A stretch of DNA of 64,000 bases, from positions 36,146,001 to 36,210,000 of the forward strand of contig OZ076419.1 of NCBI GenBank assembly GCA_964187785.1, written 5' to 3'. Under the pieces are notes generated by a model. The model searched no databases. It was not told where the DNA came from and saw only the letters and a list, made by a program, of their open reading frames with translations. Positions within the stretch are counted from its first letter, which is position 1; each line of letters starts with the position of its first letter. Origin of the DNA: Amphiscolops sp. MND2022. Lineage: Eukaryota. Below are positions 18,778 through 61,310 of this stretch, piece after piece. Both the position numbers and the translations under genes were made by a program.

Positions 18778-20341
18778 GGCCGCGTCTTTTTGATGGTCTA
18801 AAAGAATGGAGGAGCGGGTAGGGTCCTTTTTAAAAAGACGTTTCCAAAAAGATCAATATGATAAAGATATCAAATTTGCCCTTAGGAAATTCCTGAAACT
18901 TTGCATACGGCCCCGAATTGGTGAGCAATGGAAAAGTGGTAATTTTTCACAATTATCAAATTTAAGAGCCCATTTCTCGTTCCGAGGTGCCGGGAGCGGT
19001 TCTCACGTCGACGCCTATAATGCTCAGCGGTGTTGAAAGAGTGCGGGGACAAATTTTCGTCCCAATCGGATAAAAATTGACTGAGTAAAAACCGCTTTTT
19101 TGAAGCATTTTTTCGGAATTTTTCGTAATTCCAGTCTATCTCGTTTTTTTGCCCAATTTTTTTCCGAGACCCTCTCCTAAAGGCCTTCCCTGGCTGCATT
19201 TCTTTCTAACAAAACCTTTTGGCACTTTTGCCGCAGTTTCAGCGATCCAAGTTTCCCCGGGCAAAAGATAAATGTCTTGGAATTTTTTCAAAAATAAAAA
19301 AAATTCAACTTCAGGCCTCCCAAAGTTAAGAAACTTCCACACAACTAGAATTGCAAGTGGGGGCATGTGGAAAGCCCTTGAACTGAGGAGCAAAATGCCG
19401 TAAAGAACGTCTTTCTATCTTAATCTGACGTTGATCATGATATTTTGAGTGTGAACTTGATATGTGAAAAAAAAATTTAAAATATGAAAATGGAAGCTAA
19501 GTCTCGTCGAAAACTCATGTATTTATCATGAAAGTATTCCATTTTATTGAGATTAAATTTTGTATTTGTCTTTTGTATTTACTTTTGTATAAGCCGGCGT
19601 CCACATACGAACACCAACGACAACCGTCCGTAGGCATGCCGAGGCATGCGTTTCAACGACGTATACCAATTACCAAATGCCACGCAGTCTTTTGCGCTAG
19701 TTTCTGAAGATCTTCATTCATCTTCTAATTTCGGTGTCTTCAAAGTAAGCAATGATTCATCAACAAATCATTTTAAGGATTATGGCTTCAGGATGCAAAC
19801 TATTGAACTTAAGTACTAGCGCAGAAATCTTTGCAAAACTATAGCAACAGTTCCATGCGTCTTCATTGTTATCATCGAATGATTCCATTTGGTTTTTTGC
19901 GTGGGAATATTTGTGACAAAGAAAGGATTGAAAAAAAGCTCAAAAACTTATGTATTATGTTGAACATGTGGCCATAGAAACATATCATTGTTTTCTTTCG
20001 CAAAATTGTTTGTACATGTAATACATTTTAAATATTTCAATTATATTCGTGTACCCTTTGAAATTATGAAAAAGTCAAAACGGGGCCTTTTCTTTTGTTT
20101 GTTAGTTCACCGTATTAGTGCTCCCGCTTGTTCTCTTTTGGTTCAATGTTGCTATTATTGCGATTATGAGTTGAGCTTAGTAAATAACCTATCACCAGGA
20201 GCTTTTGAAGAAGTAACACTGTAGCAATATGTGTTCAAGTGGGCAGGCTTTCTTCTGTCCGTTATTCAAGAATAAAGCGGATAGTTTGGAATTTTTCAAT
20301 TTTGTTGAGTTCGTTTTGCGTAATATTTCAAAAGCTGAATA

Positions 20342-21109
20342 TTTTTAGGGGTCGGAAAAAATTTTCGACTACTTATGCAATCGTGCTGTTTTTTTCTCCC
20401 GACCTTTTCATGAAAATTTCAAATTTCTCAAAAACTGTCCATACGATTTTCACGAAATTTTACACAGTCTTTCCACACCCAAAAGGGCCCCTGCGTGCGC
20501 AAAGGCATCAAAACCGTATGGTTGGGATGTGAGAAACATAGCCAAAATTAGCCCAAAAATGGCCAAAAAACAGCGAATTTTCTACTTTTTTCGATTTTCT
20601 CAAAAACTGTCCATACGATTCGAACGGAATTTTCGACAGTTATTCTACACCATATTAGAGTCTTATATGTGCAATGGCATGAAAATCGTATGGCTGGGAT
20701 GTGAGAAACATAGCCAAAATTAGCCCAAAAATGGCCAAAAAACAGTCATTTTTCGATTTTTTTTTCGATTTTCTCAAAAACTGTCCATACGATTCGAACG
20801 AAATTTTCTACAGTCATTCTACACCATATTATGGTCCTTTATGTGCAGTTTCATTAAATTCGTATGGCTGAGATGTGAGAAACATAGCCAAATTTAGCCC
20901 AAAAATGGCCAAAAAACAGTCATTTTTCGATTTTTTCTATTTTCTCAAAAACTGTCCATACGATTCGAAGAAAAAATTTTACAGTCATTTTCTACACCAT
21001 AGAATGGTCCTATGTGTGCAATTCCAATAAATTGTTATGGCTGGGATTGGGGCGAGTCAGAAGAAAAAAAAACCTAAGCCGACTCCTTTACCGCATATGC
21101 GCTCTGGTT
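20342..21109 (+). mobile_element. HINE/Helentron-like element, copy B (4 tandem units)
   Basis: Unit marker CTCAAAAACTGTCCATACGATT at 20427, 20599, 20773 and 20944 (period 171-174 bp); same terminal motifs as copy A. Confidence 0.75.
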
Positions 21110-23199: not shown

Positions 23200-23700
23200 G
23201 AAAGATATTTAGTTTTAGTAGTGACTTTTCATTATCGATGTAATCATACGATGTAATCGCCTTAACTTTATGATCAGAGTAACTTGAATTCCTGATTCAA
23301 AAAGGTCTCTCACTATATATCTAGGGAAGATCTACTTAAAGACATCACATAAAAAAATATAGCCCTCTGAGAACCGTTTCGCTCAAAACCAGAAAACTTC
23401 TCATATACCTTTTTGAAAGAATAAAACTACCAACCACAACAGTTTTAAGCAGCACAATTGGTGCAACCAGGAAAATAAATTTCTCCCTACCTCTTTTTCG
23501 AGTACTCTCCTGCTGTACTCGGTTTCTCAGCTTCTTCATTTGCTAGCTCTTTGCCAGAAACACAGTTTCATCTCCACTATTCATCATCTACTGCTGGTAT
23601 ATTAACGTTCCAGCCAATTTTCACAAAAAATCGATTCCTGTTGGTAATTCGCGTCTCCGTTCCAACCACTACAAAGTTATATGTGTTGGTAATTCTCTTC
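23200..23700 (+). repeat. LTR end, PBS and leader of a diverged relative of the 14-kb element
   Basis: AAGCAGCACA-AT-TGGTGCAACCAGG (~23447-23471) mirrors AAGCAGTACA-AT-TGGTGCGATCAAG of the 14-kb element; the leader motifs CGTTCCAACC and TGTTGG follow. Confidence 0.55.
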
Positions 23701-24339
23701 TCCGTTTTTCAAAACACTGAAAAAATGTGGTTCGCGTTGGTGTCTGTTGTTCATGGTCAAACTGCAGACATGCGATTCGTCGTGTTGATTTTTCAAAAAA
23801 AGTGCTATCCAGTAGTTTTGCTATTTTAAAGCTAAGATCAACTTTATTTTTCGTTGACATAACCATGAAACAACCATAAAACGTTCATTCTCTTTTCGAA
23901 AATTTTAGTACAACAAAACTATGTAATCACCCCAACCTATAGCACCTTCCTTATTCTAAATTTCTCGCTAATCCCAAATATCACCAATAAAACACAATTT
24001 AAGATTCTTTCAATGCCTTCTGTTGATGTTTTTGTTCTCAAATTTCAAATTTCTTTTATATCATAATTTTTTAAATACATTTCCTCGAACACCCATTTTT
24101 GCATATATATTTTTGGTACCCCTATGAGATGCTAAGCTCAAAACCACTTTTTTCATTTGAGATTTTATCAATCACACAAATAAAAGTTTGCAACGGCTTT
24201 GATTCATTGCTCACTGGGACTGTATCGGATGAACCTCAAACAGACAAGGAAAAGTTTCAGCATCGAACACCTCCCTTTCCGTTTCGAAGGTATCGACTGT
24301 TTCATTTGCCAAAATATCTTGAGGAGGGACAGCCTGTGA

Positions 24340-24504
24340 AAAAAGGTCATGCAAGAAAACTTGATCCTTGCAAGATTCTTGCAAGATGACAGAAATCATA
24401 CAAGAATCTTGCAAGAAATCTTCCAGATTAATGCATTCACTTGCAGCAATTTGCAAGAATGTCTGTCAGAATCTTGCAAGATATATATGCGTTCCCAACT
24501 AGGG
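24340..24504. repeat. Terminal fragment of a MITE with CTTGCAAG subterminal repeats
   Basis: Clustered palindromic CTTGCAAG units ending in CCCAACTAGGG; the other end was not found. Confidence 0.45.
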
Positions 24505-25929
24505 TAAAATATGTGTATCGTCGTTACCGTCTGTCAAACCTCAGAGAAAACATGATTATTTTGAAGAAAAAACAAAGAAACTGAACATAAAAGACAATGG
24601 AACTCTATTGGTTACAACAAGCCGGGAACGGCCCAAGTCTGCGAAACATCTAAGGCTCAAAAATAGCAGAAGGACTTCAAAGTGTCAAGTATTTTCTTCT
24701 ACAGTACCCGCATGAGGAAAAAATTGAAAAAAAAATGAATTTTTTTTTCAAATTTTTTTTGGTCTCCGGGAAGTCGCATAGTGCCGAAAAATGTAAAAGG
24801 GGACCTCAAAAAAGCCGAATTAACCTCTATCTCAAGTGCCAGTAGTAGTGTGGCATTTAGTGTTAGTTCAAGTCAGCTTATAAAACTTAAAAAATCTGAA
24901 ACTTCGTTGGTCTTAGGAAAATTCACTACTCTAGTCTGCGTTTTCTACGAAAAGCTCCGACTAACATTATGCTTGACGTTTTACGAACTTCCGACTTCTT
25001 CCGAAATATTATACCTAACGATCAGCCTATACCACAAATCAAATTCGTCTCTTACTGTTCTTGAAGAAGGTTTTCCGATATAATTATGGGTAGATCATGA
25101 TCAACCTGCATACAGGAAATGGTTTTAAACATCGATGTTATAGAAACCCTTTAGTGCTGCATGTTCCATACTTTGAAATCATAGCTTTTAAAAATGGCTC
25201 TATCGTTGAACAATCTGAAACCTGTCAAAGCAGACCTTAAATGGCTTCCAATACAGTTTTCGACAACTGAACACCACAAGATGATAATGATAATGTTACA
25301 ACAAAAAAAAGAAAACATGAAAGAATCACAAGTTGAAACGAAGGAAATTCGTACCATAATTCATCAACCAGGCCAATACAATGAAATGCTTGAAAGATCA
25401 TCATCAGCACTAGATGAAACTCTCAAAAAAACCTTCCTACTGATACGTATAGTACAACACCCACCATAGATTCAAATAAACTTATGGTTCCTAACAAACA
25501 AACGATTAAACAAGAGAACAATAATGTTAATCAAAGTGGTTCATCAACACTATCCACATTGAATACAAATTTGAAATACCACAGTTTCAAACACAACCAT
25601 TAGCATGGTAAGTTCTGATCGGCTACCACCAGACGTAAAGCTTCCATAAAATGCTCTTTCTTTTGTACAGATCTTAGTTAGTACATTCGCCTAAACAGTA
25701 CATACAGACAAGATCGTACACAGAAGTACGTAACACAAATGAAAAACCCAAAGATAATAAACGATGTCAACCTTCTAATACATAATGTAGCTCATACATA
25801 CCATACAAATCTGACAAAATTTGATCCACAATCAAATTATGATTTATCATCCACTGATGATACACATCAAACTAATCACTTCTCTTCACATCAAATCTAC
25901 AAGACAGATCCATCAACATCTTTTCTTAC

Positions 25930-27485
25930 ATCCTCTTTTTCTTTGAATATTGTTCAATTTATTTGCTGTACATCAAAAACTCAACAATTTTATTGGGTAA
26001 ACATAAACACTGTTATGCTACTCACAAAAACGATGTTCCAAAATTTGCCACATTTTAAAATACATTTCAAACCAAATGCACATTTAATTACTCAACGTTT
26101 TTCCAAAGTACCACTTCCTTGCAGAGATGACTCAACAATAGTCTTAAAGAACTAGATAAACACAACCTGATTGAAAGAGTTGGTTATTCTCAACAAGATA
26201 AGCTAAAGTGCAACGTATTTAAACCCTCCTAATAATAAACCCAAACGAAACTCCATTAAACTTGTTCTTGATGCAGGACATCTCAATTCAAATACAGAAC
26301 AACCCGATGTGTCAAGGCCCATAGAACCTCTTGCTTCTCAATTAGCACGTGGTAATGGAAAGTGCGAATGTGCTTAGCCCTCATGTACGCCTATGCTCAC
26401 ACACCTCTTGGGGAAGAAACTTTAAAATGCACAAAGTTTTCATCTGGTGACAAATTTTTCGTTTTCATTAGAATCTTTTACGGCCCTTAAAGCCTTCCTA
26501 ACTTCTTCACAAAAATTGTCCTCTTTCTTCAAAACCTTCATTGAAAGCAGTTTTGCTCTTGTTTATAATGACAATCTTCTACTTCTTTGAAACTCTAAAG
26601 AACATATGTTTCAAAAAATTGAAATTCTCATATTATTAGTACAAAACACAATCTAAACCATGCTCCAGATAATTTTTTTTATGTTACCAAAAGTCAAATT
26701 TCGTGAGCATGAAATTGGCTACAGCACAATTAAATTAATCCACTCAGAGTTTGCCGCTCTTTCTTTCTCATACTGGTAAAATTGCTCTTTGGAGCTTCAT
26801 AGGTTCACTCAACTTGTATATTAAACATATCGAGTAGCTTCATATTGATCTGAATCCCTTCTACGATCTATCTTATGACAACATCCCATGGATCATGAAC
26901 TAACGTTAGTTTCAACAAGTAAGCATTGTACTCACCTCTGACACAGAACTTAGAATAGCTAAAACAAATCATCCAATATTCATTACAGTCGGATTCCCTA
27001 TTTCCCTAACTGAAATAGAATTTTTCGTTTTCGAACTGACCAATGATAACAAAAAGAAAATTATATCATACAATTCTCGACTCTAAATCCGCAAGAACAA
27101 AAACTTTATACGATGAACTGTGAACTCTTTTGTATTCTACATGCTCTTTAAACATATGAAATCTACTCATTGGATCTCCACATTCATTTCAAATTTCTAC
27201 AGAGCATAAACATCTCCTCCACTGTAATACCAGAAAAATAATCTCAGTCAACGCATTTACCGCGCTCAAAGGCAATAAACAAAAATTTCGACATTGCTCA
27301 AACACATGGAAAGAACCTTTCTGTAGCTGACATGCCTAATAGATCTTTCATTAAATCCGAGGAACATTCAAACCAACTCAAACACAAAAACTTTCACCTC
27401 AAGTAGACTTTGCTTTTCTACAAAAGAAAACTATAAAACCAATATATTACCTAATTAAGCATGAAGATATACTACCTCATCAAAG
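25930..27485 (+). pseudogene. Degenerate RT-RNase H of a relative of the 14-kb Gypsy element
   Basis: Collinear with 39581-41412: HFKPNAHLITQRFSKVP, LMYAYAHTPLGEET, ALVYNDNLLLL*NSKEHM (YxDD destroyed), SVADM. Confidence 0.85.
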
Positions 27486-32239: not shown

Positions 32240-32544
32240 AAATTAATCGTTAAATGGACAGATCAATCGTTTTGAAAAAAAATCATTTTGGACCTTGGTA
32301 CTTCCAAAATTAGTTTGACAATCTCACAGACTTCTTGTTCTCTATGTTTCTCAGTTATGGTTCTTTTTGCAGGAAATCGACCATCAATTTTGAGTTTGTC
32401 CTTTGGATAATCCAGGTAATTTCACTTGAGTGGCTGTGCTCTGTAACAAGACGGGAACGTCGCAAGTTGGTACTCCTTTTGAGGCTAGAAAGTGTTTTCT
32501 TCTGAATCACGTTAAGTCATCCTGATAGGTGGACACATTTGCGA

Positions 32545-33311
32545 AAGCCCATACGATTCAAATGAAAATGTTACAGTCATTCTGCTGCATATCGGGATCG
32601 TTCGTGGGCAATAAAATCAAAATCGTATGACTTTTGGAAACAAAAACAAAAGTGTATCAAAAATGACCAAGAAGCATAAAATCGTTTGACTGGGATCTGG
32701 GAAAAATAGCCAAATTTAAGCCACAAATAACCTAAATTGGCAAACTTTGGACTGTTTTATATGTTCTTAAAAACTGTCCATACGATTCAAACCAAAACCG
32801 TTCAGTCATTCTACTCTATATTGGGGTCTTATATGTGCAATGACATCAACGTCGCATGACTTGACTCTGAGGAACATAGATAATTTTACTCCAAACGTAA
32901 CCAAAAAACGGCAACTTTTGGACTCTTTTCGATTTCCTGAAAACCGTCCATATCATTCCAGCAAAAATTTTACAGTCATTGTACCTTATATTGGAGTCCT
33001 ATGTGTGTAATGATTTCAAAATCATACGACTAAGCTGAGGAACGTGGCCAAAATTAGACCAAAAGTCACTAAAAACGGAATTTTTTGGACTGTTTCTGAT
33101 TTTCCCAAAAAGTCATTTTGTACCATATTGAGGTCTTATGTGCAAATGATTCGAAAGAAGGTTTTCAGTCATTCTTATAACTTTTGGGGTCCTATTCGAG
33201 CGATGACATCAAAATCGAATGACTGGGATCTGAAAAACGTAGTCAATATTATTTTAAAATTTGCCAAAATACGACAATTTTCCAATTTGTTTCATTCGTG
33301 GGTTTGTTCTG
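32545..33311 (+). repeat. Older, degenerate HINE-like tandem units (copy C)
   Basis: Recognisable AAAAACTGTCCATACGATTC / CAGTCATTCT / TATGTGCAATG units with higher divergence. Confidence 0.65.
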
Positions 33312-33867
33312 TGTACTGCTTAGATTTAGGGTTTAGTGGTAGAGTATGTTTAGGTAATTCTATAGGAAGTTACTCCCATCATAAGCAGAAGCCGCTATTG
33401 ATGTTATTAGAGATCTCTTTCAATGCTTTGCTAAGTCTTCAGAGTATACCTTTCTGTTTCTTCCACTAGTTATTGACTGAGAGAAAACCTATCTATTGAG
33501 AGAAATAAGAAAACTCTGAGTAGATATTTATCATGACATACATCAAAAATTTAACTGTCATCAATAACTGTCTAGATGAAGTAGCATCGCTAAATCGATT
33601 ATAGAATAGTGGACTAGTATCTAAATAATGAAGTATTCGCTAAATAGATTAGAGATTAGTGGGTTGCCATATCAACTTACTGAGAGTCTTTATTAAATAG
33701 ATTAGAAAATAGGTAATGATATCTGGATGGTAAGAGCATTCACTGAATAGATTAAGTTAACTTTAAGATGTCATATGTCAATTTGTCAAAGAAAAAAAGT
33801 TCTAGAAAAATTCTATAAGAAACTATTGAGGTCATGCATCATGGTATCACAGTATCATGGTACCACA
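33312..33867 (-). repeat. 3' LTR (556 bp)
   Basis: Direct repeat of 46746-47300. Confidence 0.9.
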
Positions 33868-34338
33868 ATCAACCGGGTTTTTGAAAAAATTTCCATTATC
33901 GTATTTGGAGAAGTGAATGTTATGTATCTTGTTGGTTTTCAGGTGTTAAGTAAAGTGTGTTGTACGTTTGAGAAGTGTTTTATACTTAAGAGTGAGAGAT
34001 ACCTAAAACGGTTTAGTGAACTTTTTATAGTGCGGTTCAGTTCGTTTTGATGCGAGTTTTTGAAAATCAAAAGGTCAAGTAATTTTGACTGACATTTCGG
34101 TTCTAGTTATTGTTTGACAACATGTTTATGTATTTGGATTCAAATTCAATCAAGTGTCCATTCGTCGGCCTTTTTGAAAAAATCTATCAAAGTAGTCAGT
34201 GAAAGTTTGATGTATCATTAAGTGGCAAGAGACAAAAATATTGTTTTATAGGGTCGTAGTTTTGTAGATAACCCGTTATGCGAGAGTGGTCAATGGTATA
34301 CAGATGTGTCATAGTATATGGTGATGTGTATTTGTAGT

Positions 34339-35796
34339 TTACGAAAATGTAATTTTTCGAATTTTGATGTTTGAGAAAAGTAACGTATGTGTTATGATGA
34401 GTTGCTTTTTGCGAAGATGAAAGAAACGAAGGGTCATCTTCATCAGTTTTGAGATCATAAATTGACGCTCTGAGAAAAATGAACTGAAGTGAGAAAAATT
34501 TACATTACTTTCAATCCAATAATGATATGGTGTCCTTATTTTCGAGGCAATAGAAGTGAAGAAGTCTTGGTATTTGTCATATAGTTTGAAGGTGTAGTCA
34601 GTTGGGTGCATATATAAAGATGTGAGTTGAGATTTGAATGTGAAATTTTCGTTCGATAGAATCGGTATGAGATAATCATCTGTTTGTGTTGAAATTGAAT
34701 CTTTTGGAGAGATGAGTGGTGGATATACAGGAGAAGTACGAAAGATAGGATCTTTCTTTATATTGTATTTCTTTTGCGATGGTGGAGTTATTGATGGAGA
34801 TTGTTCAGGAAGTTTGTGATTTTGAGTTGAAATTTTGTTATTATCAGTATCAGAAGATTTGGAAACATTGTGAGTAGTGTCCATTTGTTTTATCTGATTG
34901 CTTGTTGGTTCAATAGGACTGAGAAAAAAAATCGGTGAATTGTTACACAAAGGTATGTTTGATGGATCTGAGATGTTCGAATTGTATAGTGATTCCAGTT
35001 GTGATTGAAGATCTATATGAGCTTGAGTCATTTTGAAATTTACTAACGAGTGGCTTTATCTTGTTTTGAAGAAGTGGTTTGAGACAAGATGCGAACTTCA
35101 ATTGTAGGTTGGATTGAGCGTTTTATAGATATTTTGATTGAATAATCATTTTTGTTGGACAAGAGGAATCAATGTTGTTGAAAAAAGAAGACTATTTCAG
35201 AGGGATTTATATGGTAGTGAAAGGCGTTCTATGTTTTTTTAGAATGAAGAGCTCTTTGAATTGTTCAAGTCAAAGTGGTGGTCAACTGGTATCACGTGAA
35301 GGAAAGTGCTGAATGACCAATGTTAAAAAGATTGGTGAAACGAATATTTCATTTTTGAATAAATCTTGACAGGAGTTTCCGTTTCAGTGTTGTCAAGTGG
35401 TGTAGAGTTCAACTGGTAAGTGTCAGATTTGGAAGTGACATTTGTATAACGGGGTAATGAAGGATGTGGCATAGATTGTGTGACTGGTTTTGAGTTGTCA
35501 ATAGTGATTGTGTTATAGGATTTACGTTTTGGAAGGAATTTAAGTTTTGACATTTTAGGTAATTTATGTGTAGAACCTTTAGTATAAAACGGAGGTGGAG
35601 ATATAATCCCGTTTGAGTTTAGGTTATCGTTGTTTCGATTTGGAGATATTTGAAGATTATCAGAGGGATAATTTGAATTAATGAACGTTTGGTCTATTGG
35701 GTTTTCAGTAAATGTTGACAAAGAAAATTTTGAAGAAATTTTGTTCGGACCCAATGCTCTTTTCTTAGAAGGAGCGTCTTTTAGGTCATTTATCAT
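34339..35796 (-). pseudogene. Unknown ORF region(s) between env and the 3' LTR (157-aa and 230-aa fragments, S/T/N/P-rich)
   Basis: Open frames on the element's coding strand; no recognisable domain. Confidence 0.45.
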
Positions 35797-35949
35797 TTCA
35801 GATGTAAGAATGTTGAAGAAACCATGTGCAATAGAACTAAAAACAGTTAAGTTTTGGTCAAGATTATATTAGGTAGAAACTGTTTTGTAAACTTTAATAA
35901 GATGTGTTAAGAGTGCTTGTATAAAAAGGAATGTAGAGAAGTATATTCC

Positions 35950-38060
35950 ACATTGTGAAAGAATGTAGCATGAGTACCTAAAAAAAGTTATGAAAGCATC
36001 AGCAAACCATGATGGTGTAAAAAGAGGAGTAAGATATATGAGTTTATCATGTAGTCCAATACGAATAGTATTATAGGGATTTGTTTGAGAAATGTGTGTG
36101 TCAGAATAAACTGGAAAATTAGAAGAAATGAATGACTAACTACGAGCTTTTCCAAGTATGTGAAGGGTTGTATCAGAATGTTTTGAAAAGAGATTTCTGT
36201 TCCAAAATTGATCGAGTTCTGCATTTGAATATTTACCACCATCTTGGGCTGTAAATGTTTTTGGACGTATTGATTTGATTAGGGTTAAACATAAGAGGAG
36301 GTTTTCGTTTGATAGGTTCTGGGCGAAGAAGTTAAAAATCTTGATCGTCAGTAGCAGGGTCAAGTTCTATAATGCTTTGTGGGTGATTATCACAAGCTAT
36401 AGGAGTGTCATAATCATATGTTTGTCGAGTAATGGGATCTACATACATGAAGGTATCTTTGTAATGTATAGGAATTGTATCAAAGCAACGGTCAGCTTTG
36501 TATAAAGGTGATAAGAAATGAGGACAGTCACATACACAAGCTGTAGAGCCTTCTACATAGATAAAGTTACTTCGATTACCCATTAGGAGGAATCCTGCAA
36601 GTTGGGGATTTTGTACGGACATAGCAAGTATTGTAAGAAATTGAATACGTTCTAATTTACAGATGGTATGAAGTGTATTAAGTTCTTGTACAGTCAAAGA
36701 ACGAAAAACGTGGTTAATAGTATAATCTATTTTAGTATTAATATGAGCATCGTGGTCAATGGTTGCAAAATTGTTAGATACATTAAGTGCTGGAAAAACA
36801 TAGTGTTTCGTTGTAGAGTCTAATACTATCTTACCAGAAATATTATAGAATGCGAATTAGGTTGTCCTGTTTGCATATTGAAACCTTCTTGATAAGTAAC
36901 AAAAAGAGCTGAATTTTGTGTGGTTTAAAGAGGTTCAGCTTTGCCACAAAATGTTTGAGTGTGTGAAAGGAGTTGAAAACATGAAAGATTTGGGGTATGT
37001 GGGTTTTGTGTGTCGGATGCATGAATGTATGGAAAGGAAGTGCCTTTGATTCCAGAGGAAGTATCAGATTTATTTGGCAAAGGAGGATGGATAAAGGAGT
37101 CTGTTTCAATCCATTATCTATCATTGACTTTAGTCATTCGACCTACAAAGTCTCGTAGTGTGAAAATTAAACAAAAGTCGTCACTAAACCAAACAAGTGT
37201 CGAAGGAGTTTTAGTAGTAGGTTTACAAAAACCCTTAGCAAAAGAACATGGAAGTGCATGTCCGTCAATTACCATTAGGTTTTCGGTATCGTCATACGTA
37301 AGTTCTACTTCAGAAACGGAATGTCTCCACCTAAGTAAATTCACTTCGAATTGGCTATGTGCTGGACAGTTGTGAAAAGGATTGGTCTTTGGATCATGAA
37401 TCCATAATTTATCTGCTGGCATGTAAGTAAAAGTACCAGTATACATTGTATTGAAGTTATGGACTGTAAAAAAAGTTTGATATTGTTCAAGTTTCTCTCA
37501 GAAATAATGATCTTCCAAGAGTGTAAAAGTACGGTTGTAATTAAAGTTGTTTAATATTTTATTCTTTGTACCATTAGAGATGTCTAATAAGGTTTCACTT
37601 TCTGATGGATCAAGAGTGATAGGAAGAGGTAATGTATTATAGTTCTATACGGTTCGATCAACACGTCTATATTTAACTGAGCCTTGAAAACAAATTTTTC
37701 TTTCCTTCTTAGTGTAAGCTTAACATTTAGAAGCTTTAACGCGTTTAGCTTTAGCTCGAGCATAAACTCGGGCTCAAAATTTAGCATGTTGAATGTTCGA
37801 AGGGGCTTCAGTACATGGTTTGACGTTTAATGAATTGAATTGTCTCAACTTATGTTGTTTTTCACACTCATAGTGAGAAACCTTAAGATTTGTAATATTT
37901 GTATCATCTGGAGGAAGATAATTGTCTGTATCTGTAAGTTCAATAGTTCTTGCATGGGAAAATAAAAGATGTTACATAGAGAAATGTAAAATATTATTTG
38001 TAAATAGATTGTGAACTCAGATAGATAGGCTCAGTGTTTTAGAATGGTGTAGTGTTTTTG
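35950..38060 (-). pseudogene. env: Env-like glycoprotein resembling class III viral fusion proteins, fragmented
   Basis: Cys-rich ectodomain fragments SHYECEKQHKLRQFNSLNVKPC, CSFAKGFCKPTTKTPSTLVWFSDDFC and RCFDTIPIHYKDTFMYVDPITRQTYDYDTPIAC; hydrophobic C-terminal anchor (IPIILFVLDYMINSYILLLF); located after the integrase. Confidence 0.7.
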
Positions 38061-39180
38061 AGGATTGAATATGGGTTGTAAAACATGATTTTACCATATG
38101 ATAAATCAGGAAGGGTAGGATCTCTGTTGAAGTCTACGTATGGAACAATAAAAGGAGCAGGTGTAGTTCTATGTTCTTGTTTTGCTACTAGAAAAACTGG
38201 ATGAGGACTTAATCCCTGAAATCTAATTTTCACTTCAAATTGTAATTCTAGGTTTGGGTGTTGAAGTCTTTTAAGTTCAAGTTCTATACGTTTTCCAGAA
38301 AATGTATCGTTGTTATGTATGAATCGTTGTGCAAGAATAGTAAAACGAGGATCAAATCTAGGTTCGTAAATAGTGATTCCGTCAACACGTAATGGATAGT
38401 CAGCTAAGTTAGAAGTAGGAGTTCTAGAGTTATCGGCAGTGATTCATTCTGAGAGACGTACTGTAGGTTGTTCAGGAGTAGGTACCAAAACTTCGGAGAA
38501 GCCATATCGGTGATAATATATCCTGATCCACGATCAGTGACAAGATATATGGGTGGACCAAATTTGACAATCCAGTGATGTAAAAGTGTCTTAACTGCTG
38601 TTTTAGCATCGTTAGATTTGATTGGTACTGTAACGACAAAGTGACTAAAAGCGTCAACAATGACGTGTATATACGCTTTTGTCTGAGAAGGAGGAGTGAT
38701 AGGAACTTTGGTGTTCATTGAGATGCAATAGTTGAAAGAAGGAGCTTGTTCTGAAAAAGATTGTAGGGGAGCAGTATTAGGTTTCATAATAAAGTGTTTA
38801 TTGCGTTGATATCAAGACAGTCATGTATGAAAATGGACAACCATTTGTCAAAAAATGGAAAAAAAAATTGTGAAAATGTATTGTACGTATTTTTAGTGCC
38901 AGTATGACAATGAGCGTGAAGTTTGTTGAAAGCTGTTTTAAACAGTCTAAAAGGAAGGCAAATCCTGATATTACTATAAACTAAGGGTGTAGTTGTATGT
39001 GATAGTGTATCTGAAAAGGATTTGTTTTTTTTGTCTATAGACTTATGAGGTTAGTGCCATCGTCAATAAAAAGTTGGAAGAAAATTGTGTAATATGCGTG
39101 TAGAAAAAGAGAGCCATGTATTAAAGGTTTAGGATATTCAGGTTTAGCATTGTGACGTATCCAGTGATATAGGGTTTTCA
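38039..39180 (-). pseudogene. Integrase, fragmented and partly deleted
   Basis: IVDAFSHFVVTVPIKSNDAKTAVKTLLHHWIVKFGPPIYLVTDRGS. Confidence 0.85.
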
Positions 39181-39580
39181 AAACAGCATCTTGGGATTGT
39201 TGATTTTGTAATGTAGTAGGTCTAGTGAAAAATCATCAGGTAAGAAGACCTTGAAAGTAGTTCTTGTACTGAAAGAAGGAAGGGTAATAGAAGGGTATGA
39301 GTTGAGAAGTATGTGTAGAGAGTTTAATAGGTTCAGTTGTATCAGTGACAGAAGTTGGTAATGAAGAAGTTTCTGGTTTTGTGAGTGTAGAAGAACTGTT
39401 TGAACGTGAGAGAGTGGGCGTTTGATATGTATCATTGGTTTGATCATTAGATGAAAATGTAACAGATTTTGGAAAACGAGTGTATATATGATCATCATCA
39501 TCACTAGTAACATCAGTATCATTAAAAAGTAAAGATTGTTGATGTGAAGATTTGTTATGTTTTCTAGCAGGTGTTTTAGA

Positions 39581-42253
39581 TTAGTTTTGGAATGGAATTA
39601 TAGATTTGAATGATAATGAGTCTAGAGGTTTGACAATAATGTCGTTACCTTTATCATTTATACGGATGGAGAATTGATCTGTTCCATAATTAGCAAAGAT
39701 AGGGTGAGAATCTTGTTTTTGATGTGGTAATATTATTTCATGATGTATTAAGTAATGAACAGGTGTTAAAAAAGTATTTTGTATTAAAGCAAAATCTATT
39801 AGAGGTGGTGGTTGTTTGGGTTTGAGTTGATTCAGTTGGAGTTCAGTTTTTGTAAAAGAACGACTAAGCATGTCTGCAACAGACAAATTTTTACCTGGAG
39901 TATGAAAAAGTTTAATTGGAAAATTTGGTTAGTTGCATTTGAGCACGGTAAAAACGTTGACTAAGATTTCCTTTTTTGTGAACTAGTGTTACTGAGATTT
40001 ATGATCTGTGAATATGTGAATTGGATGTGGAGATCCAATGATAAGGAATTCGTATATTTGGAGAGCATGTACTTTACCAAGAAGTTCACGATCTAGTGTA
40101 GAGTGTTTTTGTTCTTGTGGATTACGTATTCGGGAGTTGTGAGAAGTAACTTTCATTTTATTATTTTCATTGTGTTGGAAAAGGACAGCGCCTAGTCCAA
40201 TCATCGAAGCATCAACTGTAATGAAAAAGGGATGTTTTGTCTTGGGCATTGTAAGTTCTGTATCAGAAGTGAGAGCGTTTTTTAAATTGTGGAATAAAGC
40301 TTCATGTTCAGTAGTCCATAACCACGTAGTATTCTCATGTAGTAAGTCATAAAAAGGTTTAAGATTAATGTGAATTTTTTCGATGACTTTCGTATAAAAA
40401 TTTAGTGCACCTATAAAACTTAAAAGGGCAACTTTACTAGTGGGAGACGGAATTTTATGAATTGCATCAACTTTAGAGTGCATAGGTTTAATTGTGTTAT
40501 AACCAGTTTCATGTCCAAGAAATTTAATTTTAAGTAACATAAAAAATGATTCCCCAGGAGCTAGTTTCAAATTTTGATTTATACTGATAATATGAAGTTG
40601 TTCACCAAGTTGGAACATATGTTCTTTAGAGTTAGAAAGTAAGAGAATGCTGTCAATATGAACGAGAGCGAAGCCTTGTTCTCTAAGGGATCTAAAGAAG
40701 CAAGAAGTTTGGTAATCCTTTAGGTCCATAAAAACCTCTAATGAATGCAAAGAGTTATCATTTGAGGAAAAACCAGTTAATTTTATGGTTTCTTCATCAA
40801 TGGGAGTGTGAGCATATGCGTACATTAAGTCTATAGCACACTTGTATTTTTTCTTTGCACGAGCTAATTGTGGAGCAAGTGGTTTTATGGGCCAAGCTTC
40901 ATCGGATTGTTCTGTCTTGGAATTCAACTGGCGGCGTCTAAAACACATTGGATAGAGTCACCTTTGGGTATAATAATGAAAGGATTGAGATAAGTTGTAC
41001 CATAGTAAGGTTTGTCTTCAGGAGAAGAGCCAATTTGTTTGATAATGTTATGTTTCTCTAATTTTTTAAGTAAGCTATTGAGTTTTTTTCTATAATGAAT
41101 AGGGACTTCAGAAAGATGTTGCGTAGGAATTTGAGCATTTGTTTTTAAACGTATTCTAAAAGGAGTTGCATTTTTTCCAACATCGTTTTTATGTGTAGTA
41201 TAGCAATTTTTGTGTTTTACTAATAGGTTACACAATGTTACAAATTCAGTATCGACAAGATCAAAAAATTGGAAGTTAAATTTGTATATAAACTTAAGAT
41301 TGTCTTTTGAATATGGTAGTGTACGAAAAATGCGAGACATTGGAGTGTCAGAAGTGGGTTGAACGTTGTATATATTGGAATGAGGTGTATCATGTAATGT
41401 AAGAGATGTCACGTATATTTGATGTAAGGAAAAACGATTTGATGAAGAGGGTATATCTTGTGTGGGCGTATTATAATTCGATAATGGAATTGGTTCTGTT
41501 ATATCTGGGTGATAAGTATGAGCTACAATGTGAACAAGAGTGCTTAGATCATTACCTTGATAGTATTTAGGTCGTTCATTTGTGATTGGTACTTCAATAT
41601 ACCCAATATGTCCTTTTGGAAGTGTTGCAATATGATTAGTAGAGTTTTGAATAATTGTAGAACATATATCAGGTTTGTCGTCAGTGAAAAATTCAATGAA
41701 TTGAAAGTTGTACGAAATTTAGATGAGGAGTAAGTATGTGGTATTGTTGGAAAGAATTTGTTCCCGGGAGTTGTAGCAAAGTGGAGAAGTATTTATTCTT
41801 TATGGGAAAATGAGCAATTTTCGAGGAGTTTGGATTTAAACGTATTTGTGTTTTTGAACTGATTCTGTATATGTACGAGAAATATGGATAGTCTTTTGAA
41901 AGTAGAGAAGTAATATTAGTGGTATTCGGTTGATCTTTGGATTGATATTTGAATTGTAATGTAAAGTCTTGAACATTGAAGTTCTGTATATATTCTTCAA
42001 AGAATGGAGTTCCAAGAAATATATATTTAATATCTGCAACAGCAAATGGGATAACAAACTGTCTAGAAGTTTGTTCCATAGACGTATCTAAGGTAGTAGT
42101 TACATAATGTAAAATAGGAACTTCAGTTTGGTTTGCAACAGTCAATGTTTTTGATGTATGATTTGTTTTGTTGTTACATGTGATGTTGCGGAGCTTTGCA
42201 ATTGTAAGATAGGTAGGGTAGTTGAGTACTGAAATGGAAGCACCACTATCCAT
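39581..42253 (-). pseudogene. pol: Protease-RT-RNase H, frameshifted
   Basis: MDSGASISV; PFRIRLK...PIHYRKKL; IDLMYAYAH; ALVHIDSILLL (YIDD mutated); FITVDASMIGLG; FTDHK; SVADMLSR. Confidence 0.92.
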
Positions 42254-42405: not shown

Positions 42406-43949
42406 CTACGACATGATGTGCTTCACTACAATATCTGTCATAGGATCCTGTAGGTTTGTTGTTTGTTCTGTAAGTGTTTTTCTCACGAGAAGAAAAACGA
42501 AAGTATTGTACAAATGATTTTTGAGGAGATTTAGATCTAGTGTAGGCGTATCTTTTATCTTCATTATCTCGTTGTTTCTTGAAACAGGCAAAGATGGAAT
42601 GATTTGTTCTATGGCAAAATGAACAATATTTTTATATGCAGGTTTGTGTTTGTTATTGGCGTCACTGGATTGTGTAAACATAAGGTGTTCAGATTGTTGA
42701 GTTTCTAAATTTTGTGATTGTAGTTGATTTGTAATAGATTTTACTTCGAGAGTAAGATCATGAGTGTGTATTTTATCAATGGCTATATCTTCAGCGTCTA
42801 CACGTTTTACAAGTGTATGAAATGGTATTGAAGCTTCTAAAACAGCCGAAGTATGTTTCAAGGGTTTTGAAAGACCTTTTTGTAAAAATTTCATTACCTT
42901 CAAGTTGATGGCAGAAGCATTTTCATTACAACAGAATTTTTCAACTAGTTGTTGAACTTTAAGAGCAAAGTGGCGTACCGTTTCATTATCAATTTTGACA
43001 AGCGTTAGGGCTTCAACTTGTGCATAATAAGCATTCTTTTGAGAAGAAAACTGTTTCTTAAAAGCTTGTAGAAAAGCAGACCAGTCTTGTTTGTACGTGT
43101 CGTTTAAGCGAAAGTACCAGCTAAGAGCTGTACCAGTAAGCGAGCATTGTATACAAACCATTCGTCGAGCGTGCCAAAATTTATATTCATGAGAAGTTGT
43201 AGGTTGTAGACCTAAAGAAAATGTAACACGAGCATTAATGTGTTGTAAATATTCTTCAGGTGTATATTTATGATCAAGACCATCAAATGGTTGATTGATT
43301 CTGAAATAGAAGTAGAAGAGTTGATATATGTAGGATTTGAAATGGTTGTGGATGGTTGAGTATAGGGATGTGTTATATGATAGTTTGAATGTGAGGTATT
43401 TGTTTGCAAATTATTAGTGTTTGTTGGAATTTGTGATATAGGTGTAGAATATGGATTGGTTCTAATAGAGGAAGTTGATGGTACTGGAAAATTTTGATGT
43501 TGTAGAGAATTATTTGAAGTAACCGTTTGAGTGTTATGTTCTAGAGATTTTATAGAGTGTTGTGTCATATGTGTATTTGTAGTAAATAAATTATTTCGTA
43601 ATGGGTTGGTAGAAATTGTTTGTAATGGAGGTCTAGAAAGCGTTCTAGAGTTAACAATATTAGAAGGAGGATTTGTATGTATCATATTAATGTTAAAGGT
43701 GGTTGGTATATTTGGATCAGAAGTATTTTGTGCTTGATTATATGGATGTTTTGTAACAGACGTACTTTCAGCAGTTGAAGGAGATTGGAATGTAAATCGT
43801 GCGCTTGTGTTATTTCTAAGACCAATAATATGGTTATTGAAGGTACTGGGTTGTTGAGATGTGGAAAAAGAAGTATATGCATCAGGTTCAGGTGAAGGAG
43901 GTGGATCATAATTTCTAGATATTGGTGGTTGTATTGGTGGTTGTGGCAT
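42406..43949 (-). pseudogene. gag: Gag core (retrotransposon gag domain) preceded by a P/S/T/N-rich region
   Basis: TGTALSWYFRLNDTYKQDWSAFLQAFKKQFSSQKNAYYAQVEAL...ETVRHFALKVQQLV. Confidence 0.8.
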
Positions 43950-44053
43950 ATGGGTATTAGTAGTAGATAAAGTCGAAGAACCTTGGATTGAATTTTGTGG
44001 ATCTTGTCCTGTATTATGTCTTATATCTTCTTCTTCAACATGTCTTACAGGTA

Positions 44054-45178
44054 CTAATATGGCAATTGAATCAACTGTGAGATCTGTACATTGATTATCA
44101 AGTGTAGGACTTGGATCTTGAAGTTCAATTGATCATTATCATTATTATGATTGTCATCGTTTTGAAATGAGAAATATTCAAGATTTACATTAGGTGGTTG
44201 TCGTAATCTTGTTTGTGTTGTTTGTGGACTCTGATGTGAGTATCGAACTTGTGATTCAGATGTATCAGAGAGAAGTTCAATTGGATCATGTATTTGAATG
44301 TTAGTGTTATGAGGTGTTGTATGGATTTCAGTTGTAGATATAGTAATAAATGGACGATTATCCGACGTTTCAGAAAGTTCTACAATGAAGTCATTATCGA
44401 AAGCATACATATCAAAGTATGGTTTATGAAATTTTAGAGGATTGATATACTGTGGATGTTTGAAATCATCTCTTATAATGAAAGGTATTAAATCTACCTT
44501 ATCAAAGGTCTGTGGAAAACTAGTATATGCATATTGATCTTGTTGTACCCATATTAGTTGATAATTGAATCGAAAGAACTTTAGAGGGAATTTTGCAAAG
44601 ACTTGGATAAGTGGTATAGTGTCATCATTAAGTGTAAGATTTTGGAAGAAGTTGTACCGAAAATGTGTAATTTGTAATATATCTTGTTGTAACCTGTAGT
44701 GAGGGTTATTTTGTCTGGTTATCTTCGGGTCAATATCTGGGACTTCAAAATTTTGGTGTTTTTGTTGGAGGCTTTCTAATAAGGAAGGGCGATATAAAAG
44801 TATATCTAATATTTCATTGAATTCAATTAATTTGTTCATATAGTTATTGAAAACGTCTTGTATTGTTAGTTGTATGCTTTGTGGGTATATTGTCCTATAG
44901 TATATTCCTTTGTTAACATTTTCAACAGAGTTAAAAAGGATTTGAAATTGTGTTTGTGATGGAGTTATTTCATAAGTTCGGTATTTAATGTAATAAAGAT
45001 AAGAATCTAGTTGTTCTCTAAGGAGAGGTAAGGTATGTATAGAGTGAGGTTCAGTTTCAAAAGGTAATGGATTTGTATATTGAAAGGAGAGATTGTGTAG
45101 AAAAGGGTTAACATATTGAGTGATTGCACGTACATTAGGAGTTGGTGCAGTACTACATTGAAAGGGAGTAGGAAGCAT
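44054..45178 (-). CDS. ORF-X, 374-aa protein of unknown function upstream of gag
   Basis: Longest uninterrupted ORF in the element, with a globular-looking composition. It may be a separate gene or an N-terminal Gag extension. Confidence 0.55.
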   Translation of the reverse strand: MLPTPFQCSTAPTPNVRAITQYVNPFLHNLSFQYTNPLPFETEPHSIHTLPLLREQLDSYLYYIKYRTYEITPSQTQFQILFNSVENVNKGIYYRTIYPQSIQLTIQDVFNNYMNKLIEFNEILDILLYRPSLLESLQQKHQNFEVPDIDPKITRQNNPHYRLQQDILQITHFRYNFFQNLTLNDDTIPLIQVFAKFPLKFFRFNYQLIWVQQDQYAYTSFPQTFDKVDLIPFIIRDDFKHPQYINPLKFHKPYFDMYAFDNDFIVELSETSDNRPFITISTTEIHTTPHNTNIQIHDPIELLSDTSESQVRYSHQSPQTTQTRLRQPPNVNLEYFSFQNDDNHNNDNDQLNFKIQVLHLIINVQISQLIQLPY

Positions 45179-46294: not shown

Positions 46295-46309
46295 CTCTTG
46301 ATCGCACCA
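46295..46309 (-). other. Primer-binding site
   Basis: TGGTGCGATCAAGAG, two nt after the LTR end ...GCAGTACA. tRNA identity not assigned. Confidence 0.75.
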
Positions 46310-46311: not shown

Positions 46312-47300
46312 TGTACTGCTTAGATTTAGGGTTTAGTGGTAGAGTATGTTTAGGTGTTTCTATAAGAAATTACTTTCATCCTAAGCCGAAACCGTTATTG
46401 ATGTTATTAGAGATCTCTTTCAATGCTTAGTCCTATGTGTGTAATGATTTCAAAATCATACGACTAAGCTGAGGAACGTGGCCAAAATTAGACCAAAAGT
46501 CACTAAAAACGGAATTTTTTGGACTGTTTCTGATTTTCCCAAAAAGTCATTTTGTACCATATTGAGGTCTTATGTGCAAATGATTCGAAAGAAGGTTTTC
46601 AGTCATTCTTATAACTTTTGGGGTCCTATTCGAGCGATAACATCAAAATCGAATGACTGGGATCTGAAAAACGTAGTCAATATTATTTTAAAATTTGCCA
46701 AAATACGACAATTTTCCAATTTGTTTCATTCGTGGGTTTGTTCTGTGTACTGCTTAGATTTAGGGTTTAGTGGTAGAGTATGTTTAGGTAATTCTATAGG
46801 AAGTTACTCCCATCATAAGCAGAAGCCGCTATTGATGTTATTAGAGATCTCTTTCAATGCTTTGCTAAGTCTTCAGAGTATACCTTTCTGTTTCTTTCAC
46901 TAGTTATCAACTGAGAGAAAACCTATCTTTTGAAAGATATAAGTAAACACTGAGTAGATATTTATCATGACATTCATCAAAAATTTAAATGTCATCAATA
47001 ACTGTGTAGATGAATTAGCATCGCTAAATAGATTACTGGACTAGTATCTAAATAATGAAGTATTCACTAAATAGATTAGAGATTACTGGGTTGCCATATC
47101 AAATTACTGAGAGTCTTTATTAAATAGATTAGTGGGTAATAATATCTGGATGGTAAGAGCATTCACTAAATAGATTAAGTTAACGTTAAGATGTCATCAA
47201 AATGTCATATGTCAATTTGTCAAAGAGAAAAAGTTCTAAAAAGTTTTAAAAGAAACTTTTACGGTCATGTATCATGGTATCACAGTATCATGGTATCACA
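46312..47300 (-). repeat. Composite 5' LTR: partial LTR (46312-46428), copy of the left flank (46429-46745), full-length LTR (46746-47300)
   Basis: 46429-46896 matches 32995-33462 with one substitution seen. Confidence 0.9.
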
Positions 47301-48431
47301 TCTGGTTATCTCTGGCATGCGCAAAAACTGGTCGTTTGTACATATGTCGTCCTGTCCGCTGTCACTTTTGTTTCATTTGAACTTGGCCAATTTTCTAAAT
47401 TATCTCTGGACACATCCAGTGGTTGCCAGGTGCCACAGGGGTACACGGTGATGCGATCCAACGGATTAACGTTTTCTAGGACGGGTCGCGATGAATGTGA
47501 CTGTCCCATTGCTTAGCCAGAAAAACTCCGGGGACCGGAGCGTCATTTTTTTGAAGAAAAGTGAACTTGTTCTTCATTTTCGAATTGACGGTAGCTACGC
47601 TCTTCCCCAAAATAAAGAATGGGATACATCGGGTGTTTCAAAAAAAAGTCTCTGTCCCTTGTAATTGATTGTTTTGTTTGAAAATAACTTGCTCAAACCT
47701 AAGGACCGTGACAGAAGATGAGAAATTACTAGAACGTACGTGTCAACCTTCCAGTATAATTTTTCATGCGTCGAACACCACCACACTTAACACAAAAGTT
47801 GCCCTCAATCTATAGAAGACTAACTATCATTCTTTTGTTGATTTTGTTTTTTTTTCGTGTTTATTTGTAGTACTCTTGTCTAAGTGAGAATTGTAAGTGA
47901 GAAATCTTTTTAAAAAGATTCAATGCAGAGGGCTGCGACCGTTTTAAACAAAAAAGTTCTGGCGCTTTCAGTCAGTTTTACAATGACCGCAAATTAATCA
48001 CTGCGTTCTGCGCTCTATATTGTTTGTTACTCGTGTTGCCTTTATCTTGGAGAAGACAAATGGGAATAATGTGGTGGTCGGAAACTGTGTTGGACCTTGG
48101 ACGAAATGACGGAGGAGGTTTTCGATGATATTATTTTGGATGCAAACGTTAGCTGTTTCAAGCTTTTTGCTCGTTTCAGGATATCGTGTGGCGTACAGAA
48201 GGCCGTTTGTTAGCGCGTTTGTTAGCGCGTTTGTTAGCCTGTAGGTGTTTCAGTAACCGTCTGAGAACTGGTTACACGTTGAGAGCAAAGATTTCACGCA
48301 CTGATGACTTTGTGTCTAGCACGGAGGAAAAACGCAAACCAAGACAGTTTTCTGTTGGCCCGGAATTGTTGAAACGTTCAAAAATTCGCAACAACTTTTT
48401 TTGTGCGTATGTTTGGAACATAGAGTTGGAA

Positions 48432-51400
48432 CACAAGAGATTTTTGTGCGTATGTTTGGAACAAAAAAGCCGTTATTGTAATTACTTGGGGTTGAAACAG
48501 AAAGCAACAAGACTGCACTTTTTCATCAAATTCCACGTGCGAGGAGAGTGAAACTTGCTTCTTTTGACAATAGGGACTACACTACGTAATACACGAATAT
48601 CATTCGTGGACAATAGACTGCCGGTTGCGTCAAAGTTGTTTGTACGTGAGTTGCGGTAGGGTAATCAAGCTGTTAGAAAATTTCTATTTTCATGATGTAC
48701 CAGTCACTTTTTTGCCGAACGCACGTTGTATGGATTCCAACTACCTGGGACTTTGTATGCGAGAGTAAATCATGCCTGCGTATTGGAAAAACAAAGCGAC
48801 TTAAAGATCGGGGCATTTTCAGCAAAACGAAGTGACAAATTGTTAACGTACATTAGGCACTGTTTTTTCAGGGCAAAATTTCACAAACAAAATTCTCTAA
48901 TTTGATACCATAACTTAGAAAATAGTAAACATTTGGTGTTGAGATATCCTAAAGACAGTGCAATTTGTACAACTGAAACTCCGCTGTTGTTTCCGGCATT
49001 TTCAATTCACTTTTTAGCCTCAAAACCATCTCATTGACTTCTGAGGGTAGCGCAATGAAAGTTAAACCACCAACGTAAAGTTTTGCGTTCTAAACGTTGG
49101 TCATACTAGTTTTACAATGTTTGAATCCGGACATTTTTCAATTGATTTTGAAAATGAGGCTATTGAGTACCGATAATGTCCAAAAAAGACACAAATTCCT
49201 CAATATCTCCACATTTACTTGTCACGACCCGCTCCCGGTCGGTGTACAACATACCATGAAGGAATTCATCGTGACACAAGACGTTTTGCACAGGGGTATG
49301 GGAAAACTTCTAAACTCATAAATATGCAAAAAATTCTACTTCCAGTACAGCTAAATACAACAGTAAGGATTTTGTTTCTGAATAATAAAAGTTAACATAC
49401 GGGCAACGTAGTACTTTGCAAAATGATTTAATCTACCTAAAACTTCCGGTCTAACATTTTTACGCGTGATCATTTTCACTTCCAGTTTCATCTTCTGAGT
49501 TACACATCTTTCTTTTTCCACCTTGAAATGAAACAATTAGAACAGTATTTAAATCCGTGTTGCCAACGGTTTTCTTATGATCTAAAATGAAACAAACATA
49601 CAGAAAGTATAGTAGATTGTTGGCTAGTACTCAAGTAGTTCAACACTTACAGTCAAGGAAATTAAGAGACCAATTACCACGTTATGACAGCGTCACACAT
49701 CAGAGCTAGTACCCGGTGTTCCTATTTTTTAAGGTTCAATAGCGGTGTCCCTTGCTCCAGCTATTTGCGCTCAGTCCAATAAGAATGATTTTCTCGTGAC
49801 GTTATGTAGAGAATAAGAATGATTGTCTGCGCACTCCACAATCTCTACGTTGGTCGCTGTTCAACTATCAACTATATCTAATCTTAATACTTACGGAGAC
49901 GTTACAGAGCAAATTGTAAAATTGTATCTATGAAATGAAGCTCCAGGCCAACAGTTGAACACTATTTCTTCGAGATACGATGCATTAAGAAAATTTCAAC
50001 ATGAGGATCTAGGATGTCTAAAGCTGTACTGTGAGGTGAATCTCTGTGTTGTGTGCTAATCTCTACATCTGCGAAATTAAAGTTTTGTTTATGAAACGCT
50101 GACTTACGTTGACAAATTAACTCCCATGCCAGGGAGGTTCTCGAGCGTTCTGAATACCGTTTTGCATCTATAAGTGGATAATCCGGAATGTCTACGGAAG
50201 GTCACCGTTTTAGCAACGAGTGAGTAAATGATGAAATTCCCACCTTAATGAAATATGTCCCTAATTTCACGTACTCAACACGTTAACTTCTCATTTTTGT
50301 TACAAGTTCTTTGCGATCCTAATTTTCCCGACTGTGTTGTGTCGTATCTTTAGAAGCAGTGATGATGTAAATTTGTATTCATTGAAACTAGTCACATCCT
50401 AACTATATTGGTCAGTTGCTTAGTAGTGATACTTTTCATTGAAATTGTCAAAAACCTGCGATATTTGATTCAGTTAATATGTTCTCTTTTGTTGTTGTTA
50501 AACATGTAATGTAGCGGTATGAATTGTATATAGTTACCCTGTTCCGGACAAACCACGTTTTATTCTTCATGTGAAAAACCTCCTCTGCATCATTTGTTTC
50601 TCTGACCGTTTTTACTTAGATATTTCCGACCTTGAAATTATTTGCTCCATTTCAGTCGGGTTGATATTTTTGCGTGTCATACTTTTGTCTCAGTCTTCAG
50701 AATTCCCAATTTGGAAATTGACTACATGATCACGCCGTGCCTTCGTCGATGAAAACATTGAGCAGACTTTTTTTGTCGCCATTTCAAGTCCAAACAGAAA
50801 ACGCGTTGGGATGAACAAAAATGATTTCAACAAATGCTACGGAAGGGTGACGCTTCCGATAAAGGTATCTCAAAATTGTTTCAGATGTTCCTTTTTTGCC
50901 ACGAGTTTGTCTCCCTTGTAAAAAGTACTGCGTATTTTCACTCGATACCTTTTGTTTTCCTTTTTCCAAACGTTCTGGGTTTTTATACCAGCAATATAGC
51001 AACGGTTGACGACGGATCAAAAGAGATAGGTGTTCATTCAGTTGTTTGTATTACTTCTTATGTCTGAATTACTTACAACTCATGTCCATGAAAGTTAACA
51101 GATGGTTGGATGATAAAACCTTCAATTCAACTTGGCGAAAACTACCAATCATCTTGACTTAAGGGATTCTTTTTATGGAGCTCGGTGGAAAAAATGGGAT
51201 GTTTTGAGAGCTCTGGGAGAAACTCTCAGGGCTTAGCGCTCAGTAACTTAAGTCTCTTTTGCCAATTTGGTGACTTTTCAAAAATAAAATCATTCTTTTT
51301 TCAAAACGTTTGTTTTCACATTGCATTTGCAATTCAATATTAATTGCCAATAAGTCGTTACAAGACCGGCAGGATGTTGTTACAAATCAGCTGTTTTTCA

Positions 51401-55472: not shown

Positions 55473-55741
55473 TATGTGCAATGGCATCAAAATCGTATGG
55501 CTGGGATGTGAGAAACATAGCTAAAATTAGCCCAAAAATGGCCAAAAAACATTGAAACATTGAAACATTGAAACATTGAAACATTGAATTTCATTGGATT
55601 AATATACATGACATACATTAAAGTATTCATAAAGGTATAGAAAATCCAATGTGGACACAAAATGAGCATCAGTGCTCTTCAAGTTTGTGCCCATTTGATC
55701 AATCTCAGCACAATTAAATATTAAGTATTGCTAAAACACTT

Positions 55742-61269: not shown

Positions 61270-61310
61270 GTAATTTCTTTTCGATAATTTTGTATCATTT
61301 TTGTTTTCAG

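Follow-up and report, generated by a model that had tools for sequence, protein, structure and literature searches.

The window, a 64-kb stretch of DNA (64,000 nt), contains an LTR retrotransposon spanning nt 47300 to 33312 on the minus strand. It is a decayed, twice-deleted copy of an abundant Ty3/gypsy family of about 18 kb that carries an envelope gene (env) of the gB/chuvirus type. The 5′ LTR (46312–47300), defined by LTR pairing, is followed directly after its CA end by a primer-binding site, TGGTGCGATC (46300–46309), the first 8 nt of which are common to the related families A, A2, B and E; the corresponding tRNA type has no entry in the table of PMC13524379, as far as the accessible part of that paper goes. 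A broken gag gene (42479–45178) was delimited by tblastn to an unbroken relative and retains a Retrotrans_gag domain (Pfam E 5e-8). The broken pol gene (38501–42253), assigned by Pfam matches and sibling copies, encodes protease, reverse transcriptase (RT), RNase H, plus the first half of the integrase (IN). Next come the last third of an accessory gene, ORFX, corresponding to its conserved C-terminal domain (38039–38500; profile E 9e-68), the broken env gene (35323–38097), the first two thirds of a second accessory gene, ORF4 (34208–35031), recognised by comparison with relatives, and the 3′ LTR (33312–33867), again defined by LTR pairing. All of these features are on the minus strand.

Both large deletions are private to this copy, since its siblings do not have them. 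The first, of about 1.96 kb at 38501/38500, truncates pol, the missing part of which is retained in siblings, and also removes the CUG start and the YNLR motif known from the ORFX of relatives, so that the IN core ends at 38501 and is fused to the ORFX remnant (38500–38039). The second, of about 2.2 kb at 34208/34207, takes the end of ORF4 together with ORF5. With true LTR halves that match at 91.5% and 93% identity and closest siblings at 82–87%, the window copy is old. Within the 5′ LTR, a 434-nt piece (46429–46862) is a near-exact copy of the 3′ LTR end and its flank (32995–33428), matching at 433 of 434 positions (99.8%) although the LTRs otherwise differ by 7–8%; misassembly and recent conversion are both possible readings. 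The element sits in one of the arrays of a ~172 bp satellite that are dispersed in the window (18219–21109, 32500–33300, 51656–52028, 55179–55612 and 59543–61998). A tandem duplication occupies 48428–54714, with a spacing of ~3,522 nt and blocks that are 100% identical.

The env stretch first singled out (35950–38060) lies inside the LTR pair. The gene runs from an ATG at 38097 to a stop at 35323 and comprises about 925 codons, with a predicted signal peptide, an ectodomain, a predicted anchor near 35900 and a tail of about 200 aa beyond it. The initial annotation described a decayed ORF of ~700 aa after the integrase. The decay is evident from 11 in-frame stops, of which 9 fall in aligned segments and 2 within the first 50 codons, and from lasting frame changes at two places, near 36841 and near 36270; the length was underestimated, the long cytoplasmic tail past the anchor having been overlooked. 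The gene is indeed downstream of the integrase core domain (rve, E 7e-11), but it does not follow it directly, as the deletion joins IN to the ORFX remnant. The three Cys patterns reported at the outset are present in minus-strand frames (SHYECEK..SLNVKPC, ALPCSFAKGFC..TLVWFSDDFC and RCFDTIPIHY..VDPITRQ..IAC). A signal peptide and C-terminal anchor, also proposed then, are predicted from the hydropathy of unbroken relatives, with peaks at residues 27–45 and 715–733 of relative P0001.

The proposal that the product is a class III fusogen of the chuvirus G/herpesvirus gB type, and not a baculovirus F-type protein, agrees with both profile and structure searches. The profile match, which could have fallen on a non-fusion protein or on baculovirus F, was to PF24664 (Monjiviricetes_fusion), with E 1e-12 for one unbroken fragment from the window and E 3e-24 for an unbroken natural relative. 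A structure model was built with AlphaFold on an unbroken natural relative from the same genome (716 aa, monomer) and is of middling quality (pLDDT 69, pTM 0.43). Against BFVD its top match was chuvirus G (E 2e-27), and related negative-strand virus glycoproteins were matched as well; against the PDB it matched herpesvirus gB (best E 1.7e-10), which filled all 35 rows among the matches listed, and the TM-scores were low (0.26–0.42). The env sequence profile gave no match to PDB sequences. No R-x-K/R-R furin site was found in P0001, P0002, P0024 or P0028, relatives representing the four closest families. Because the Pfam and fold matches are to class III proteins and these relatives have no furin site, env encodes a class III fusogen, and not a baculovirus F protein; its ectodomain is predicted to have a gB-like fold.

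The backbone is that of a Ty3/gypsy element, as had been annotated. The domain order between the LTRs is gag–PR–RT–RNase H–IN, with gypsy-type Pfam families, and the RT is nearest to that of Ty3 (E 6e-38), with lower-scoring matches to foamy virus (9e-18) and MLV (5e-7). Peptidase_A17 is the marker family of BEL/Pao pol. A BEL/Pao backbone was rejected, as a query of 1,955 aa from PR to IN matched gypsy-type families, with Peptidase_A17 absent at E values up to 1. The linkage of env to this RT, which the initial annotation had assumed, holds across copies: every one of the 20 young copies retrieved together with long flanking sequence has gag–pol upstream of env, as do 6 of the window copy's 10 siblings, and the remaining four siblings are truncated or rearranged, with none carrying another RT. 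The RT and env phylogenies proposed earlier were reconstructed on a limited scale, with 12 rows each and copies from this genome alone; they give identical groups and place the window copy beside families A and A2.

Relatives elsewhere in the window had also been announced. A gypsy element at ~23400–27484 (plus strand) is present, but as a decayed pol remnant that has an LTR end and a related primer-binding site, is truncated within RNase H and lacks env. Another copy, older and env-bearing, is faintly preserved at 4644–7916 (plus strand), where an ORFX end, an env start (E 6e-6) and an ORF4 end follow in order. A further decayed gypsy pol remnant lies at 15430–16005 (minus strand). Two distant gypsy families with a gB-type env were found elsewhere in the genome (G000:C7:23197679, L056:3377-4357; G000:C5:2194742, L060:3360-4130), with RT 43–45% and env ~27% identical to those of family A. 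Their pol–env spacing is 3.0–4.6 kb, with small ORFs within it, and downstream of env they carry an ORF encoding a TRAF/MATH domain (four of four copies tested; Pfam E 1e-10 to 1e-22), possibly a signalling decoy. A MATH_TRAF domain has been reported in the planarian element Burro, according to the accessible part of PMC6431247.

The host's COX1 fits mitochondrial code table 5 (AGR read as Ser, ATA as Met, AAA as Lys), which suggests a bilaterian invertebrate that is not a chordate, echinoderm or rhabditophoran flatworm. A search of the 1.07-Gb genome with an env fragment gave 6,945 first-look candidates. By a hand count, which is biased towards the best matches, about 93 of the best 150 env matches lie in open frames of at least 900 aa, and four further env families gave 50–62 scored matches each, mostly unbroken. 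Intact copies, for which the initial annotation had proposed a search, turned out to be present as many young, unbroken elements in the same genome. Exact matches to a 20-nt pattern that marks the start of ORFX in families A and A2 number 1,542 in the genome (control, 0), and there are at least 1,542 young relatives. The LTR pairs of young copies are 96–100% identical, and the family has amplified recently. Comparison of A with A2 (dS 1.3–2.0) gave dN/dS values of 0.040 for RT–RNase H and 0.051 for the env ectodomain; for the ORFX and ORF4 domains they were 0.074 and 0.070, respectively. The env, ORFX and ORF4 genes are under purifying selection, and env is about as constrained as RT.

According to the initial annotation, a gypsy backbone with such an env would be a distinct virus-like family. 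This headline is not new, because gB-type env genes on Ty3/gypsy elements are described by Chary and Hayashi (eLife 2026, PMC13524379), whose accessible text reports HSV/gB-type env on such elements across many animal phyla, about as commonly as the F-type. What distinguishes the present family is its accessory-gene layout and a translation signal, both of which are hidden by the deletions in the window copy. Complete copies of ~18 kb have the order LTR–PBS–gag/pol (one frame of ~2,730 aa)–ORFX–env–ORF4–ORF5–LTR.

In families A, A2, E, B and B2, ORFX lies between pol and env and extends over 410–446 codons from a CTG without a single Met codon. This CTG is found 6–44 codons after an upstream in-frame stop, and its context, A-n-n-CTG-G (A at −3, G at +4), is conserved in 20 of 21 young copies of the five families and in five of the seven old siblings that could be aligned (three further siblings have lost the region). 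The sequences flanking the CTG differ between families, CTG makes up 0–6% of Leu codons, and A-n-n-CTG-G occurs in frame just once among the 15,941 codons of the other ORFs. Within A/A2 there is a weak contrast between synonymous loss of the CUG (15) and neighbouring synonymous change (33), the former being about half of the latter. Formal p-values are too small, because they overstate the independence of five related families (B and B2 closely so), though silent sites between families are saturated. Readthrough or frameshifting from pol into ORFX was considered and rejected, given the stop before the CUG and a distance to the pol stop that varies from ~80 to 350 nt.

The stretch that runs from the CUG to the start of env specifically avoids AUG. 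In all five families it contains 0–3 ATGs, compared with 7–11 in shuffled sequences, and no depletion was seen in any of 16 control stretches. The avoidance is visible at the level of single codons. Where an Asn, Asp, His or Tyr codon precedes G, so that a T in the third position would create an ATG, T is used at 7 of 32 sites in ORFX, compared with 512 of 654 across pol, env and ORF4. Such a difference is not seen for other pyrimidine-ending codons before G (150/182 in ORFX, 884/1,077 elsewhere). A CpG-island effect fails as an explanation, because these other codons behave alike in ORFX and in the remaining ORFs. Among the residual ATGs (up to three), one in A and one in B have a purine at −3, and the context of the env AUG is only moderate in A and A2.

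These features are probably best explained by translation of ORFX from its CUG and leaky scanning to env on one subgenomic RNA, in an 18-kb Ty3/gypsy family with a class III env. A minority of ribosomes would start ORFX at the CUG and most would scan a further 1.2–1.4 kb to the env AUG, which would fix a low ORFX:Env ratio; the shared subgenomic RNA would arise from an internal promoter or by splicing. A shared splice acceptor upstream of the CUG was looked for and not found. Both splicing and internal promoters occur in gypsy elements, as described for the Tor elements in the accessible part of PMC4402516. A precedent for the scanning step is rice tungro bacilliform virus (RTBV), in which ~10% of ribosomes initiate at an AUU, the others scanning through 900 bases free of AUG (PMC5902531, in the part accessible).

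ORFX could instead be a second exon spliced to an upstream AUG exon, with env expressed from its own spliced RNA and CTG-GA acting as a cis-signal. The frame is already open for 6–44 codons before the CTG, B-type copies have long pyrimidine tracts upstream, and parallels exist in the accessory genes of complex retroviruses and in the spliced env RNA of Tor3a (PMC4402516, accessible part). Splicing, however, would require neither the absence of Met nor the loss of out-of-frame ATGs, both of which are avoided across 1.2–1.4 kb; B and B2 lack an AG in the 150 nt that precede the CTG, and the conserved letters are those of a start-codon context, in frame. We consider this explanation unlikely.

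A different possibility is that the region between pol and env, as in Tor4b, mainly provides env with an internal promoter or with a long 5′ leader that ribosomes scan; avoiding AUG would then benefit env only, and ORFX would be a by-product or a regulatory upstream ORF with a protein of no importance. This too would predict AUG avoidance, env of Tor3b/4b is transcribed from an internal promoter according to the accessible part of PMC4402516, and ORFX has no fold match. It is nevertheless very improbable in our estimation: the frame is open over 410–446 codons in five families, and its C-terminal domain has a dN/dS of 0.07 between A and A2, is ~40% identical across families with saturated silent sites, and folds at pLDDT ~80 (residues 70–195 of the model).

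The N-terminal part of ORFX is Ser/Thr/Pro-rich and has a disordered region, with R-x-x-Y-N-L-R in all five families. This resembles the chromatin-binding sequence GGYNLRPR of foamy virus Gag, in which the Tyr and Arg contact the nucleosome acidic patch (PMC12125541 and PMC6021111, accessible parts), although the motif is short and the proteins are unrelated. ORFX may bind nucleosomes via YNLR, four residues only, and is predicted to be a nuclear, chromatin-tethered regulator or integration helper. The integrase tails of A, A2, B and B2 end in Y-x-L-R (YKLRQ, YNLRQ, YNLRP and YNLRS; for example, L031 near 5840), a motif of the same type. Structure and profile searches left the folded C-terminal domain of ORFX unmatched, the best values being E 0.16 in the viral Foldseek search, Z 3.3 with VIA, E 0.3 for the PDB profile and 0.81 in the Atlas, there for an unnamed entry. 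The idea of a negative-strand virus matrix protein drew only weak scores (best Z 3.3, best Foldseek E 0.16) and was not adopted; absence of a match does not prove a new fold. Within ORF4 (447–500 aa), ~235 aa form a conserved domain on which purifying selection acts in all five families, and ORF5 differs between A/A2, B and E; neither has a Pfam, PDB-profile or Atlas assignment. Profile searches found no homologues of ORFX or ORF4 in the distant families C and D.

Env likely serves cell entry, because it is constrained and constantly linked in cis. On particles, it would mediate cell-to-cell entry towards the germ line. It might alternatively be kept for a role other than infection, such as cell-surface fusion or interference against related elements, with spread occurring purely inside germ cells; env transmission is unproven outside Drosophila, as stated in the accessible part of PMC13524379. 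That env is found in cis in every transposing family examined, at the same constraint as RT, fits a role in the element's own replication and makes a non-infectious function rather unlikely.

Comparison with known systems supplies partial parallels, drawn here from the accessible parts of the cited papers. The HSV/gB-type errantiviruses (PMC13524379) are alike in that their Ty3/gypsy pol precedes a gB-type env that has a signal peptide and an anchor, that they are multicopy and that env diverges with pol, but the present family is larger (~18 kb), with three accessory ORFs and a pol–env spacing of 1.3–2.1 kb. As the prefilter of that survey allowed 1 kb gaps and 10 kb regions, elements of ~18 kb may have been missed; its main text, as far as accessible, says nothing about a CUG, leaky scanning, splicing or accessory genes. 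Mosquito BEL/Pao elements with a chuvirus-like G (PMC7642597, PMC13524379) share the fusogen family (PF24664), whereas the backbone here is Ty3/gypsy; homologues of that G are also reported to adjoin gypsy pol (PMC13524379). Tor3b/4b of Oikopleura (PMC4402516) are gypsy elements with env and a pol–env spacer or internal promoter, but no Met-less coding ORF comparable to ORFX is reported in the accessible account of the spacer. The Burro elements of planarians (PMC6431247) are giant gypsies with accessory domains including MATH/TRAF, in which env is inside the polyprotein, unlike here; that additional ORFs can lie between pol and env, or after them, is generally known (PMC6431247).

For the translation signal, the closest likeness is to ORFs I–II–III of RTBV (PMC5902531), with a non-AUG start, then a long AUG-free stretch and scanning to a downstream gene. 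RTBV is a plant pararetrovirus that uses AUU on its pregenomic RNA, whereas the family described here consists of animal LTR elements, with a sequence-inferred CUG upstream of env. The dicistronic vpu–env RNA of HIV-1 and rev–env RNA of SIV (PMC5902531) are similar in that a single RNA carries an accessory gene with env downstream of it, scanning sorting the two; they differ in their AUG starts, short upstream ORFs and class I Env, and there is no homology. A literature search, confined largely to papers available without subscription, turned up no LTR retrotransposon reported to have, upstream of env, a gene that is bicistronic or starts at a CUG.

How env is expressed in gB-type gypsies, and whether they are infectious, is an open question in the accessible part of PMC13524379. 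With its many young, unbroken copies in a single genome, the family described here allows a sharp prediction to be tested, namely a single RNA on which ORFX starts at a CUG and AUG-free scanning leads to env. ORFX would exemplify a conserved gene class missed by AUG-based annotation and by filters for short pol–env gaps, and its signature (a Met-less ORF, A-n-n-CUG-G and ATG avoidance upstream of env) could be screened for in the 1,512 published elements. Tentatively, the family may represent complex, still-active, gypsy-derived invertebrate retroviruses that combine a class III envelope with an accessory protein that is initiated at a CUG, binds nucleosomes and is translated from a bicistronic env RNA; they would also have other accessory genes and, in sister families, TRAF-domain decoys. 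If this is true, accessory-gene regulation would have been invented independently of lentiviruses and foamy viruses, in elements present in thousands of copies in one animal genome.
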